A stretch of 63,103 bases of DNA, the filler included, from Thermoplasmatota archaeon (lineage in GTDB: Archaea > Thermoplasmatota > E2 > JACPAO01 > JAHFTW01): NCBI GenBank assembly GCA_041623215.1. It is 9 parts of 9 records of this genome, joined end to end, with 100 filler letters (N's around TTAATTAATTAA, not from the genome) between each part and the next. Parts side by side here need not be neighbours in the genome. Positions count along the whole stretch, not along the records: positions 21,596 to 28,527 come from JBFJXH010000091.1; positions 28,628 to 35,488 come from JBFJXH010000092.1; 7 more parts are not named here. One strand, written 5' to 3'. This document shows, piece after piece, positions 27,001 through 33,000 of the stretch (within the stretch, counting starts at the first letter, position 1; every line of letters begins with the position of its first letter). The position numbers were made by a program.

Positions 27001-30000
27001 TACGCGTGACGTTCGTGTGCCACCTGCCGTCGGCGGCCTCGTCGAAACCGTGCGCTTGCTACGGACTTCAGACGACGACCTTTTCGTGGCTCCTGTGCTA
27101 GGTGGCCCTGAGCCCCCCGCCAGGAACCGCTAAGGCGCGGCACGAACGGTCAAGAATCGTTATATAGGGTCGGGACCAAAGGTCCCAAAAGGCCTAGGCG
27201 GGGCCAGAGGACTCAACATGAAATTCGACGCAAACCGTATTCTTACGCTGGAGGACCTGTCCATGGCAGTGTCCAACCGCATTGGCATCCCTGAGGAGGA
27301 TGCCGTGCGAGACGCCAATTTCGTCATGGACATCTTCGGCTTCGAAGACCGTGTCATTGACAACGTTCTAGAGCCGGAGGACCGCCAGCTCTTCTACATC
27401 TTGGAAGAGGAAGGCATGTTGACGACAGAGCGGGAGGAGACCACGCTCTACGATGGCCGCGAGTGGCGCACCCACTATTGGCTCTTCAAGAAGCAACAAG
27501 TGCTGGCCATGAGTGCCGAAGAGCGCGAGATCCGCCGCCGCCGCAAGGCGCGCCCCAGCGAGTCCGACGTCTACATGCAAATGACGGACGACATGTGGGG
27601 CTCCCGCCAAATCTAGGCCCCGCCATCCTTCTCCCTTCCGTCCTAGCGTCGCTATCGACCGCGTTTTCTGGCCCGCCGGTGCCTGAGCCGGCGTGCCAGT
27701 CTAATTCCACTTAGGTACCCCCAACCCCCAAGAGGGGGGAAAGTTTCCAGCACCCGTGCCCTTCCCCTACGCGCCACGGCCGGGCCAGGAGGCCATCATG
27801 GCTGCCATGGTATCCGCGATGGCGGACGGGCAACACTTGGCACTAGAAGCCGGCACAGGGCTCGGTAAGACCATTTGCGCGCTCACCGCCGCGAAACAGC
27901 AGTCGGGCGGCCGCGTCATCTATGCGACGCGCACCAACAGTCAACAAATCCAGGTCCTCCGGGAGCAGCGTATCCTAGCCGCCGGCGCCGATGAAGCGGG
28001 GCTGCTGCCACTCATGGGCCGGAGCCACTATTGTCCCCTTCTCAAGGACGACGAGAAATTTGCCGGCGCAACCAGCGACGAACTGGGACGCTTATGCCGC
28101 AAGGCGAAGCGGGCGGCCACGATTGAGCATGAAACCGGCAAGGGGCAGACGGGCGCCTGCCCCTATTACGCAGGGCTTCTTCGGGATGGTCCCGAGCCAG
28201 TCCAGGCGCTGCTTGCCGGAGGGGCGGGCGGCGACGAATTGGCCCGCCGTGTCACTGAGGCAGGCAGCTGTCCGTACGAAGCGATCAAGCTGCTCTTACC
28301 GAGCGCGCCGGGCGTCGTGCTCCCGCTCATTTTTCTCCTCGATGATGGCCTACGCGGGGCGCTTGCTCAGTGGATGGGAAGTGCCTTGGACGAGTGTCAC
28401 GTGATCGTCGACGAAGCACACCATTTGCCCGATGCCGCTCGCAGCCATCACAGTCCGGCCTTGGGGACCGCGACGCTGCTACGGGCCACCAAAGAGGCCA
28501 GAGAGCTTGGCGACCCTGCTGTGGCGCNNNNNNNNNNNNNNNNNNNNNNNNNNNNNNNNNNNNNNNNNNNNTTAATTAATTAANNNNNNNNNNNNNNNNN
28601 NNNNNNNNNNNNNNNNNNNNNNNNNNNAACTCGGCGTTGCCGTAGCCCAGAAGGGCCGTCGCCTGTTCCGAAACGTCCTCCACGGTCATGCCCAAGGAGA
28701 CGTGGAAAACCATCCAGGGGCAAACCACGATGTCGGGGTGGCCATGTGCCTTGGCGTACTCGACGTTGAACCACAGCGGATTGTAGTTCATGGTGGCCGT
28801 GGCGAAAGCCGCCGCTTCGGCCTGGGTGATGGTGCGACCGTACTTGTGCGCAATGGTTTCCCCGGCGCTAAACTGGTCCCAGTAGCGTCCCTTGGGGATG
28901 AGGTGGCGGGTCACGCGTCGGCAAGCCCCTACCGCTACTTCACCGGTAGCCTTGCGCTGCGGCGCACGGGGCGCGATGCACCGTAGGTGGGTGGCTTCGG
29001 CATGGGTAGTGGCGCATGCGGGCAATCTAGCTGGTCCAAGCGTCACAGCGGGGCGTGCCGGTCGCGGGTGGGGCAAACGGCAACTCCACTACCAAGACGC
29101 GGGTGTCTTGGCCGTCTAGCGGCGCCGCCGAGTCTGCCGTCATGTGCCAAGTGCCGGGCGGTGCAGGTGAGCTCCAACTTTGGTCCTCTTCGGCTAGTGT
29201 CATGGTTTCGCCGTCAGGGGTTTGAACTCTGATGGATGTGTTGCCGCTGCTGGTGGCGTCAACATGGACATAGGCATTGTCGCCAACTTCCATTTGAGTT
29301 TGCACGCCGTGGGCCACGACCAGAGATGCGGCGCCGGCGCCGAGGCCATTTGCTTCAAACTCTGTAACGTCGCGAAACGTCGCGCTTCCGCCAGCCATAG
29401 CATCCAGCGAGGCTCCATCTGCGGGGCCGTCCCAAGCTAGCCAGGCGTCGAGCCCGGTTCCCTCGCGGTCGGCGTAGACTTGGTGAAACGTCAAGGCGCT
29501 GTATTGGTCGGCGGTGGAGTAGAATGTGGTCCCTGGGGGGGCGCCCCCCTCGGGGCCTCGGCCGTCGACGTGGACATTCACGCCTTCGTAGCGAGCCCAG
29601 GCGGCGTCGTTGCGTCCCTCCCTGCGGTGCACGCCTTCGCCGATGCAGGTGCCCCCCTCGTCATCGATTCGCACATGCACGTACCTGGCGCCGCCGACGC
29701 CGGACCCGTCCGGGCCGCGGGTCAACTGGTCATACAGAGCGGTTACGCCGGGTTTGACCGTGCCGGATAGCCCGATGAATTGATCAGGTGCCAAACTGAC
29801 GTGCAAGGCGTGGTCCGGCACGTGCGTGGAAATAGTCAGCGAGTAAGCGTAGGGTGGGTCTGCTCCTTGGCCATAGCCTACGGATTCGAGTTGCACGTTC
29901 CAGGCTCCTGCTTGGTTGGCAAAAACCTGGTAGGGAGTTGAGCCAAGCCAGCCGTCGCTGTCGCCTACTTGTCGCAGTCGACCTTCGGGGTCGGACACCA

Positions 30001-33000
30001 ACATCATGGTCCAATCGTCTGCAATCAAATCAAATGTAACGACGCTACCGGCAGGCGGATTGAATGGGATGTCCACTCGTTCATACCAATCGAGCGTCCC
30101 GTGGTAAGTGGTGCTGTCTCCGTGGTCGGCTTGAACTTCCAGGGGTGCGGCCAGGCTAAACGCGACAACGAGCAAAGCAACCACTCCATACGTGGAACCA
30201 CCCATAGTTCAGTAACCCAAAGGAGGTGGTTCAACTTTACGGTAGGGTCGCCTGGTGGCCTCTGTTGGTAGCTAGCGCGTCAAGACAACCTTCCCGGTTG
30301 CCTTTCGGTCCTTGAGAAGTTGCATCGCTTCGGCCGATTTCTCGAGGGGTAGTGTTTCGCTGACTAGGGTTTGGATGTGGCCTGCCTCAACGGCTCGCAG
30401 CGCCTGAATGAGCTCGGCCTTGGTGCCCAAGGTGCTGCCCATGATGGTCTTGTTCTGAATGAACATGTAGGCGAGTTCTAGGTCTGCTTTGTAGCCGGCG
30501 GTGGCACCGCACGTGACCATTTTGCCGCCAGCTCGCATCAGCTTGATGGACTCCATCAGCGTCGCACCGCCCACGGAGTCGAAGACGACGTCAACGCCTT
30601 TGGGGTTCAGGTCTTTCATGGTGCCCAGGAATTCTTTGGTGACGGCCTTCTCGGTTTCGGGTGTGGTGTGGGGTCGAATGACCACTTCGTCAGCACCAAA
30701 GCGGCGGCTCAATTCCGCCTTCTCCTCGCTGCTGACGACGCCGATGACCTTGGCGCCGCGAAGCTTGGCGATTTGCGTCGCGAAGAATCCAACACCGCCA
30801 CTTGAGCCACGCACGAGGACAGTATCGTTGGCCTGAACGCGTGCGTTGGCCACGAGCATATGCCATGCCGTTACGAGTGTCAGTGGCATGCTGGCGGCCT
30901 CTTCCCAACTGGTGTTCCAGGGCTTCTTCACCAGGTTGTACGCCGGCATGACAACGTGGGTGGCATGCGCGCCCCACATGGGGCCAGCGTCAAAGCCCCA
31001 AATGCGGAACGTGTTCTCGCAGATGTGCTCTTCGCCGTTGATGCAGCGGAAACAGTGATGGCAGCCAATGCCGCAGTAAACGACCACCTCGTCGCCTGGC
31101 TTGAGGTGGTTGACTGCTTTGCCGACCTCCTTGACGATGCCGCTGGCATCGCTGCCGAGAATGAGTGGCAACTCGAAGCCTCGTACCTTGCCTTCGCGGG
31201 CCCAATACTCGTTGGGATTCACCCCCGATGCCTTGACTTCGACCAAGACCTCGGTGGGGCCAATCTGGGGTTCGGGGATGTCTTCGAGCTTGCAAACCTC
31301 GGGGCCGCCGTGCTCGCGGATGACCACTGCTTTCATGGGCCCGTGCGCCATGTTGGCTAGGGACCTTAACGGCTTGCACTCGAACCAGTTCGCGCCGAGA
31401 CTTGACATGGTCGATGAAAGTGACCAAACAGATGGCCTGGGAGCGACCTGACAACGGGCCGCACCCCTAGCGCGTCCCGGTGCCCTTGACCTCGATGGCA
31501 CTGCCATCTGCGATGGCGTGGCCGCCCCAGGCTGCCAAATCGGGCCCCACCCACGCTGCCAAGTTCGCCTTAATCGGGTCGATGGCGGCCTTGGCATCAA
31601 GGACCGCGTCGTCCGCATGAACCAGGACCACCTCGGCTGTGAGTAGCCACGATCGACGGTCCCGCCCCACGGTCTCTCGCTTCGCCAAGACACACTCAAG
31701 TCGGACGGGGCTACGCCGCAACCCAGGCGGCAAGATGCGCGTTGAAGCTATCACATCGACGTTGCTGCGCACTGGGCCGCGGTGTGGCTCGGGCAGCGGC
31801 CCGGCATGCGCAGCCACGTCCTTGACCATGCTCACCGATAGCAGGTTGAGCACAAACTCGCCGCTGTCCTCGAGATCTACCAGGGCTCGGGTCGCGCGGG
31901 GGTCGCGCTCGGAGAGCACCACGGCCACCGTTGGCGGTGACGCCGCGAGCGGCAAGATGCGAGACACCACAGTGACAAACGCATCCCCTGAACGGGGACC
32001 AATGGTAGACAAGGCGGCGAGCGGGCGGGGCCCCAGGGCTCCCGCCAGCAGGCGGTCGGCCGCCTCAGGTCGCGCCATGTCAATGGCCAAGTCCACGCGC
32101 CGCGAACGCTCCTGGCCAAGAAGGCCTTGCCTTGCGGTGCATGAGCGGTCTTTTTCATGCGGTCCTAGTTTGGCGCTCCACTTCGGAGGCAATGCCGTGA
32201 CTGACCAACCTACGACCCTCAAGACGCTCTTCTGGAACAACGTGGACCAAAACGGGGACCAGCCAGCCCAGACTTGGTTTGACGGCAGCGAATGGAAAAC
32301 GCGGTCCTTCAGCGAATTTGGCCAATCCATCAAGGACGTAGCCCAAGGCCTCATGGCGCTCGGCGTGAAGCGCGGCGACCGGGTCGCCATCTGGAGCAAG
32401 AATAGCCCGCGTTGGGCTGAAGTTGACTGGGCTGACCAAACCGTCGGCTTCGCCACGGTGCCCATTTACGATACGCTGACCGCCCCCAAGGCCGCCTACA
32501 TTCTGAACGACTCTGAGGCGAAGGTCATGTTCGTCCAGGACCGTGGCATGCTCGACAAGATCCTCGAAGTGGAGAAGGACATCAAGACCGTCAAGCACTA
32601 CATCATGCTCGAGGGGCGTGCTCCCACCGGGCGGAAAGACGTCATCACCTACGCGGCGCTCGTGAAGGAAGCGAAGGCCTTCGCCAAGAAGCACCCAAAA
32701 CGCCTGGACGGCGCCATGGCCAAAGTCAAGCCTGATGACCTTGCCAGCTTGGTGTACACGTCGGGAACGACCGGCGACCCCAAGGGCGTCATGTTGAGTC
32801 AATGGAACTTCGCCAGCAATGCCGCCGTTGCGCGTGCCTGCGTGGACTTTGGCGTCGGCGACAAATTCCTGAGCTTCCTCCCCCTGTCGCACGTCTTTGA
32901 GCGAACTGGTGGCCACTTTGCCGCCTACACCGCCGGCGCGCAGGTCGTCTTCGCACGCGGCATTGAAACGCTGACCGACGACATGCAATTGCATCATCCA

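Follow-up and report, generated by a model that had tools for sequence, protein, structure and literature searches.

The locus and the genes of the module

The window, the whole 63,103-nucleotide stretch analysed from a Thermoplasmatota genome (G000), is a chain of contigs, of which C92 (positions 28628–35488) carries two of the six genes discussed here. One, on the minus strand at 30272..31351, encodes a compact Ccr-like enoyl-CoA reductase of 359 residues, a candidate carboxylase/reductase. The other, on the same strand at 28628..28914, encodes MaoC1, the putative N-terminal half of mesaconyl-CoA hydratase (Pfam MC_hydratase, E = 4e-13); it runs off the contig end at 28628, and its start, inferred to be a GTG, lies at about 28914. 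The initial annotation paired the two genes on this contig. Both are indeed present, but they are not adjacent in G000, as an ORF of 392 residues with a hydrophobic N-terminus and no Pfam match (29027..30205, minus strand) lies between them. We regard this ORF as a passenger outside the module, because the reductase adjoins MaoC1 in the relatives G030 and G028 and in a locus of an Eisenbacteria genome. The long-chain acyl-CoA ligase gene beside the reductase (32215..34035, plus strand) was rejected as a module gene as well, since it occurs in all 38 genomes of the order. A scan for promoters and terminators gave matches at chance level only.

Elsewhere in the window, contig C88 carries Mcl, a predicted malyl-CoA/beta-methylmalyl-CoA lyase (11961..12875, plus strand). 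The remaining module genes lie outside it: the 3' portion of Mcd, the methylsuccinyl-CoA dehydrogenase candidate (C221:2-886, plus strand), with its N-terminus on a separate contig (C186:3-248, minus strand), MaoC2 (C221:1275-1562, plus strand) and a B12 mutase (C44:6573-8093, plus strand).

Distribution and origin

The reported co-occurrence of reductase and Mcd extends to most of the module: orthologs of the reductase, Mcd, mutase, Mcl and MaoC2 occur in the same six of the 38 genomes of the order, and MaoC1, looked for in these six only, is present in all of them. The clusters described in relatives were also recovered, with three genes in a row in G028 and all six within 14 kb in G034 (C33, 4501-18521). 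In the Eisenbacteria genome, the reductase, MaoC1, Mcd, MaoC2 and mutase genes follow one another in an operon-like row, and no match to Mcl was found in that genome. G021, a seventh genome of the order, has nothing of the module but a piece of the reductase. Although G021 belongs to another genus, the contig with this piece matches the G026 locus at 86% identity from end to end and is therefore probably misbinned or recently transferred.

A search across the phylum found the reductase in four of 401 sampled genomes, all from the family of the host, and reductase and Mcd occur together in one of 151 genomes of the phylum of the Eisenbacteria genome. The carriers are kin, so their shared gene content amounts to about one or two events. 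Contamination of G000 by a bacterial contig is unlikely, because the reductase lies near the same native gene, the acyl-CoA ligase, in five of the six carriers, and the GC3 of the module is uniform (0.72–0.75). The module was probably acquired from bacteria.

The reductase and its putative CO2 pocket

As the initial annotation stated, the reductase is closer to Zn-type alcohol dehydrogenases than to Ccr: its best PDB match is 2EIH from Thermus (E = 4.6e-76; K. setae Ccr, 6.3e-45), it is 33–34% identical to two alphaproteobacterial Ccr, and a structural four-Cys Zn site is present. This is the only Zn site in the sequence. The catalytic-Zn ligands of Zn-dependent alcohol dehydrogenases are missing, with Asn45 and Ser67 where AibC has Cys and His. 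The best NCBIfam match is TIGR01751 (Ccr/ECR), at 231.2 bits, below the curated cut-off of 378.55, and matches in the ESM Atlas are to generic Zn-dehydrogenase clusters only. In fold searches with an AlphaFold model (pLDDT 85; residues 49–62, directly after Asn47, are poorly modelled), K. setae Ccr (6OWE/6NA3) ranks third to fourth in Foldseek with the same MDR fold (TM 0.81–0.82). AibC (5K1S), which we take to be a plain MDR enoyl-CoA reductase, and 2EIH (41% identity, TM 0.87) are alike in size and in the structural Zn site and have the best sequence and fold scores.

In the active site, Asn81, Ser119 and Phe170 (Ccr numbering) are kept in 22 of 22 members of the reductase family, matching the combination of Asn81 with Phe or Tyr170 that marks Ccr/ECR, whereas site 81 is Leu in 2EIH, Tyr in AibC and Leu in 78 of 129 aligned rows; neither 2EIH nor AibC has the Phe170 motif, and only seven of 150 distant representatives combine Asn81 with an aromatic residue at 170. 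As in Ccr, no acidic residue follows the second nucleotide-binding strand of the reductase. The enzyme differs from Ccr/ECR in having Asp at Glu171, Thr at His365 (Ser in one of the 22) and Glu or Gly at Thr82, with Glu in the archaeal proteins.

The initial annotation called the enzyme non-carboxylating, a label that the mutational data do not support, because the lost His365 is tolerated singly while the critical Asn81 and Phe170 are kept. In K. setae Ccr, carboxylation falls to 19% in N81L and 17% in F170A and is retained at 93% in H365N and 97% in E171A. Glu171 and His365 bind water in that enzyme and are said to compensate for each other; the text consulted gives no double mutant. T82D lowers the turnover of Ccr more than 50-fold, and the acrylyl-CoA reductase of N. 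maritimus, of a related class, has almost no natural carboxylation according to a review. Given a route of the ethylmalonyl-CoA type, we lean towards a reductase that carboxylates.

Using the family profile, we scanned five of 64 parts of a metagenome collection and kept 80 loci, all more distant relatives. Asn81 is absent in 73 of them, and the other seven have the pocket N-D-S/T-F-Q-H. No MaoC or mutase gene neighbours any of the 80 loci, two have an Mcl-like neighbour, and no new module locus emerged. An order-wide paralog of the reductase near an ICM-type mutase was set aside as a module relative: the connection is synteny only, with citrate synthase and other genes between them, and the paralog has Leu at site 81.

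The mutase

The most distinctive part of the module is the mutase, an alpha subunit of 506 residues only, without a fused B12 domain. It keeps Y89, Q197, R207, Y243/H244, R326 and Q330 of MCM, and the rest of the pocket is rebuilt by F286W, F287I, H364A, T365L and N366S, so that none of the MCM residues F287, H364, T365 and N366 remains. A canonical MCM is encoded separately in G000, on C101. Nor does the protein carry the combination that we take to be the Ecm signature, H328G with N366P, both present in the two Ecm-type proteins compared; it keeps H328. It shares T365L with these proteins, an Ecm-type mutase is also altered at 364–366, and N366 is replaced in both types. The mutase is 39% identical to an Ecm-type protein and groups outside the MCM, ICM and Ecm sequences in a clade of its own (support 95). 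By its sequence, it is neither MCM nor Ecm but one of a broader bacterial clade in which the pocket is rebuilt. The gene is annotated as MCM.

Candidate dehydrogenase, hydratase and lyase

The identity of about 50% to bacterial Mcd given earlier holds, the C221 piece being 49.7% identical to Paracoccus Mcd over 294 residues. Nine of ten specificity sites (S248, R252, A285, F287, R376, T418, R421, F534 and E535 of the Paracoccus enzyme) are kept in the five carriers with full genes, and E380 is replaced by Ser. The C221 piece shows the five that it covers of A285, F287, R252, R376, R421 and E535. Five other acyl-CoA dehydrogenases of G000 lack the specificity residues, and the Eisenbacteria Mcd deviates at 285, 287 and 376. 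With 390 residues as against 551 in the Paracoccus type, the archaeal enzyme lacks the N-terminal extension of about 170 residues.

The proposal of a split mesaconyl-CoA hydratase is likewise supported. The full MaoC1 ortholog of G034 matches residues 5–156, the N-terminal half, of the Mch structures 8HGN and 4E3E, and MaoC2 matches the C-terminal half, including the Glu/His/Asn/His motif. In place of the single double hot-dog chain of about 350 residues of mesaconyl-C1-CoA hydratase (8HGN, 4E3E; haloarchaeal NF041625), there are two separate genes of about 165–170 codons, one for each half. They flank mcd in the Eisenbacteria row and in G034, and the two products may pair as one enzyme.

The best PDB matches of Mcl are two lyases of the ethylmalonyl-CoA pathway, R. 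sphaeroides Mcl (4L9Y, E = 1e-49) and 5UGR, and the lid Asp299 is kept, as in the Mcl1 type. Orthologs at 87–93% identity occur only in the six carriers among the 38 genomes, and the gene adjoins the mutase gene in G030 and G034. The C52 CitE, earlier counted in the module as a thioesterase, has to be dropped: low-identity CitE paralogs of this kind occur in 32 of the 38 genomes (33 have any CitE match, the only one in G036 being a separate, 50% Mcl-like gene), and by eye the matching motif has Asp, not Glu. The C52 MaoC-CitE pair, rejected with it, presumably resembles the pairs of leucine catabolism. In the Rhodobacter thioesterase group (Mcl2 type), the lid Asp is reported to be replaced by Glu. 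No malyl-CoA thioesterase was identified.

Possible pathway and alternatives

The co-inheritance of the six genes, the Mcd specificity residues and the Mch halves support the earlier proposal of an ethylmalonyl-CoA-type module, and we consider such a route probable. Judged by family membership only, none of the steps leading from acetyl-CoA to glyoxylate and propionyl-CoA lacks a candidate. Thiolase, 3-hydroxyacyl-CoA dehydrogenase and crotonase, all present throughout the order, would supply crotonyl-CoA. The reductase would convert it with NADPH and CO2 to ethylmalonyl-CoA, perhaps slowly and with some leakage to butyryl-CoA. From this, the one epimerase and the module mutase (with a shared B12-binding subunit, the only one identified) would yield methylsuccinyl-CoA, which Mcd would oxidise to mesaconyl-C1-CoA. 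The two MaoC halves would hydrate this to beta-methylmalyl-CoA, and Mcl would cleave it to glyoxylate and propionyl-CoA, the latter entering the native PCC/MCM route. Conversion of glyoxylate to malate would take Mcl together with a thioesterase, or malate synthase, and for the carriers without malate synthase no thioesterase candidate was identified.

The reading that we place first, with close to an even chance judged from sequence, is that the six genes, probably of bacterial origin, make up a variant of the ethylmalonyl-CoA pathway whose compact reductase itself carboxylates crotonyl-CoA. Counting against it are E171D and H365T together, the archaeal T82E and the reductase score below the cut-off; the mutase without the H328 change of Ecm; three carriers without malate synthase and three with ICL; the Eisenbacteria genome, which has ICL, no Mcl match and a deviating Mcd; and nine non-carriers with neither the module nor either shunt gene. 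The absence of ICL from G000, where no match was found, had been cited in favour of the module; it loses its force because 11 of the 32 non-carriers also lack ICL. Coexistence of ICL with the ethylmalonyl-CoA pathway is known. No malate synthase gene (aceB) was found in G000, G030 and G034, genomes that are 86–88% complete.

The same route might instead use the reductase only to make butyryl-CoA from crotonyl-CoA, leaving carboxylation to an existing biotin carboxylase, as first proposed. The combined E171D, H365T and T82E and the closest structures, 2EIH and AibC, are in keeping with this, as is the presence of two PCC-like carboxyltransferases, which may be promiscuous toward butyryl-CoA. 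Yet N81, S119 and F170, needless for a plain reductase, are invariant, and no carboxylase is co-inherited or clustered: the three types of carboxyltransferase are the same in carriers and non-carriers, with no extra one in carriers or clusters. Butyryl-CoA would, moreover, presumably be re-oxidised by the several acyl-CoA dehydrogenases of the genome. We regard this version as less likely than the first.

Rather improbable is a module that serves not acetyl-CoA assimilation but the handling of another enoyl- or alkylmalonyl-CoA, or mainly the breakdown of C4 acyl-CoAs (butyryl- or isobutyryl-CoA, from fatty acids and valine) to propionyl-CoA and glyoxylate. The uncharacterised type of the mutase pocket, an order-wide isobutyryl-CoA-type mutase (F89/Q207), the distribution of malate synthase and ICL and the lack of a thiolase or PhaB gene in the archaeal clusters examined would suit it. 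Against it, the C5 skeleton is fixed by the methyl pocket and arginines that the archaeal Mcd shares with methylsuccinyl-CoA dehydrogenase, and butyryl-CoA degradation needs no NADPH-type reductase. Degradation of external methylsuccinate, mesaconate or itaconate, suggested by matches of the MaoC proteins to RipB/Ich and of Mcl to RipC/Ccl that are weak and far below cut-off, is very improbable, as such degradation relies on a CoA-transferase, an isomerase and a dehydrogenase of the C4-CoA type, whereas Mcd is of the C1-CoA type, the family III CoA-transferase is missing in five of five genomes tested, and the reductase and mutase would be left without a role.

Relation to known pathways

Like the pathway of Rhodobacter, Paracoccus and Methylorubrum (Ccr, Epi, Ecm, Mcd, Mch, Mcl1, Mcl2), the archaeal set has one candidate each for Ccr, Ecm, Mcd, Mch and Mcl, the Mcd with about 50% identity and the Mcl with 4L9Y and 5UGR as its closest structures, and epimerase, PCC and MCM are present. 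It differs in its archaeal host, the short Ccr-like gene that carries a Zn site and is altered at two pocket positions, the MCM-alpha-like split mutase, the two-gene Mch, the shorter Mcd and the lack of an identified Mcl2-type thioesterase. We found no archaeal ethylmalonyl-CoA pathway in the literature searched. Such genes had been mentioned for Angelarchaeales; the main text of that study names none, and the supplementary matches listed are to the KO name of an epimerase only. The archaeal route of acetyl-CoA assimilation usually cited is the haloarchaeal methylaspartate cycle, and a related order has been described with a glyoxylate shunt.

We tentatively suggest a bacterial-derived archaeal pathway in which CO2 is fixed by a compact, Zn-binding enoyl-CoA carboxylase/reductase of a second lineage, with an Asn/Phe/Asp/Thr pocket, and ethylmalonyl-CoA is rearranged by an independently evolved two-subunit mutase. 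If true, the ethylmalonyl-CoA route would be a further archaeal means of assimilating acetyl-CoA, with co-fixation of CO2. The reductase bears on whether nature has any solution for CO2 binding other than the four-residue pocket of Ccr, and the mutase on what turns a B12 mutase from methylmalonyl-CoA to ethylmalonyl-CoA; the two enzymes are also relevant to synthetic CO2-fixation cycles. Genome surveys would miss the pathway, as the mutase passes as MCM and the reductase does not reach the Ccr cut-off.

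Composition and distribution of the module

The six genes for a Ccr-like reductase, two MaoC proteins, Mcd, Mcl, and an extra B12 mutase form a real module, which was probably acquired laterally and is predicted to work like the ethylmalonyl-CoA pathway, although its reductase, mutase, and hydratase fall outside Ccr, Ecm, and single-chain Mch. The window joins contigs of the G000 genome (1.94 Mb, 62.7% GC, 88% complete), of which C92 carries on the minus strand a medium-chain reductase of 359 aa (window 30272-31351), whose nearest relatives carry the label Thermoplasmatota, and the MaoC1 gene (about 28914 to 28628), which is cut by the contig end. 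The two are separated by a 392-aa ORF (29027-30205, minus strand) with a signal-peptide-like start and without a Pfam match, unrelated to the module; a flavin-reductase-like ORF (PF01613; 31467-32090, minus strand) lies between the reductase and an acyl-CoA ligase. The other genes named by the initial annotation are all present: Mcd on C221 with its N-terminus on C186, MaoC2 on C221, Mcl on C88 (window 11961-12875), and the mutase alpha subunit on C44.

The initial annotation placed the reductase and Mcd in the same 6 of 38 genomes of the order, and close orthologs of five module genes are indeed confined to G000, G030, G026, G027, G028, and G034. Across the 38 genomes, the orthologs share 81-88% identity for the reductase, 82-86% for Mcd (to the G034 query), 67-74% for the mutase, 87-93% for Mcl, and 73-87% for MaoC2; a local search of the carriers found MaoC1 in all six. 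Beyond these, G021 contributes only a reductase fragment. Its 1.6-kb contig C323 (L008), which also holds a downstream ORF, matches the G026 locus at 86% identity along its full length and is probably misbinned, G021 being of another genus. All six genes lie on one contig in G034 (4501 to 18521), where the cluster is interrupted, like the 392-aa ORF site in G000, by unrelated exported-looking proteins. Reductase, MaoC1, and Mcd stand in a row in G028; in G030 the reductase adjoins MaoC1, and Mcl the mutase. In an Eisenbacteria genome, five of the genes follow one another as reductase-MaoC1-Mcd-MaoC2-mutase, and no match to Mcl turned up in that genome. The reductase is near an order-wide acyl-CoA ligase in five of the six carriers, a placement that counts against binning error. 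The carriers are kin, requiring two changes on an EF-2 tree (30 of the 38 genomes, four carriers among them), so their co-occurrence represents one or two events rather than six. Among 401 sampled genomes of the phylum, the reductase was found in four, all of the same family. G036, a non-carrier of another family, has a distinct Mcl-like gene (C9:23035-23913, L187; 50% to the module lyase), and the 15 kb examined around it contains none of the remaining module genes.

Dehydrogenase, split hydratase, lyase, and mutase

Paracoccus Mcd (6ES9) is the top PDB match of the dehydrogenase (E 5e-114). The five carriers with a complete mcd gene retain nine of ten active-site positions described in PMC5798300, and the A285/F287/R252 set is missing from five other G000 acyl-CoA dehydrogenases; the Eisenbacteria Mcd differs at 285, 287, and 376. 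In the Mch structures 8HGN and 4E3E, MaoC1 aligns to residues 5-156 and MaoC2 to residues 178-319, which makes the split Mch of the initial annotation well founded: the hydratase is encoded by two genes, unlike single-chain Mch, and its halves would assemble into one enzyme. The lyase is closest to Mcl from R. sphaeroides and to 5UGR.

With Y89 and R207 (P. shermanii numbering) retained, the module mutase should bind a dicarboxylate. It differs by F286W, F287I, H364A, T365L, and N366S. Two fused Ecm-type proteins in unannotated records, one of which faces a ccr gene and is taken as Ecm for that reason, have H328G, H364Q, T365L, and N366P. Besides the module mutase, G000 and G034 each have a canonical MCM and an F89/Q207 subunit of ICM type, the latter fragmentary in G000 (on C36). 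In each of the two genomes a single B12-binding subunit was found. The signature recurs in 114 of the 115 next-best database matches, the named ones being from Dehalococcoidia, Chloroflexi, and NC10. In an unrooted tree of 49 rows, including 23 of the 115 matches, the signature group forms one branch (support 95), and the archaeal mutases are nested amid bacterial-type rows, a placement that would fit a bacterial donor. These matches (P0131-P0245) constitute a large undescribed subfamily (F287I, H364A, T365L, N366S) annotated as methylmalonyl-CoA mutase.

Reductase pocket and possible carboxylation

Aligned with K. setae Ccr, whose numbering we use, the reductase keeps Asn81, Ser119, and Phe170 and has Thr82 replaced by Glu, Glu171 by Asp, and His365 by Thr. 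According to PMC6628652, carboxylation by K. setae Ccr falls to 19% in N81L and 17% in F170A, whereas H365N and E171A retain 93% and 97% at an about 20-fold lower rate. The initial label "non-carboxylating" is not demonstrated. The kept trio is present in 22 of 22 full-length family members. Of 129 aligned rows, site 81 is Leu in 78, while 27 others make up a compact group with N-D-S/T-F-Q-H/T and two are canonical Ccr; Asn81 with an aromatic residue at 170 occurs in only 7 of 150 distant representatives. A quick, unrooted tree places the family amid the compact group as one branch (support 100). The scores behind the statement that the reductase is closer to a Zn-ADH than to Ccr hold, but the Zn-ADH reading does not: catalytic-Zn ligands are absent, and the statement is a product of the PDB label. 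More widely, a group of compact Zn-binding proteins that resemble Ccr (L052, L053, L055-L057, L080, L105; P0024, P0026, P0030 and kin) has the pocket N-D-S/T-F-Q-H (or T), and at L056/L057 such a gene stands head-to-head with an Mcl-like gene (40%).

We regard an ethylmalonyl-CoA-type route as quite probable. Given that route, we lean towards a carboxylating reductase; the two together come close to an even chance. Plain reduction combined with a biotin carboxylase, as initially proposed, is less likely. Three points speak against carboxylation. Both water-binding residues, said to compensate for each other, are altered at once, and T82D lowered turnover of K. setae Ccr >50-fold where the module reductase has Glu (both from PMC6628652). 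Furthermore, natural carboxylation is almost nil in the acrylyl-CoA reductase of N. maritimus, according to a review. Three carboxyltransferase types are the same in four carriers and five non-carriers, and no carboxylase gene lies in the G034 or Eisenbacteria clusters.

Titles and abstract openings, subscription papers excluded, gave no report of the pathway in archaea. In the consulted portions of two Lutacidiplasmatales texts, the epimerase is the only pathway mention. The mention of ethylmalonyl-CoA genes initially attributed to Angelarchaeales could not be traced: "ethylmalonyl" is absent from the main text of the Angelarchaeales paper, and three of its supplements contain four matches, the two viewed being the epimerase name, with neither K14446 nor K14448 in the searched content. 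A Binatota preprint reports the pathway by annotation.

Degradation, glyoxylate shunt, and thioesterase step

Degradation of methylsuccinate or itaconate, the alternative raised initially, is weakened, as the family III CoA-transferase was found in none of five genomes. Neither ICL nor malate synthase was found in G000, G030, and G034 (86-88% complete). The three carriers said to have ICL are G026-G028, which, like the Eisenbacteria genome, have both enzymes; coexistence of the pathway and the shunt is documented in Paracoccus. Since ICL is also absent from 11 of 32 non-carriers, and both shunt genes from nine, its absence is no evidence for the module, contrary to the initial argument. These nine genomes with neither shunt nor module are G005, G012, G019, G020, G021, G025, G031, G032, and G035, three of them at least 90% complete.

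The C52 CitE, previously proposed as thioesterase, is order-wide and carries Asp in place of the Glu of the Rhodobacter thioesterase group, so we assign no gene to this step. It belongs to an order-wide MaoC-CitE pair (L018:6600-7903 and 10175-11632) near an MCC-like carboxyltransferase, an arrangement that we take to resemble leucine-catabolism sets. On the same contig, a multicopper-oxidase-like exported protein (L018:4503-5801) is encoded beside a CxxCH-containing membrane protein.
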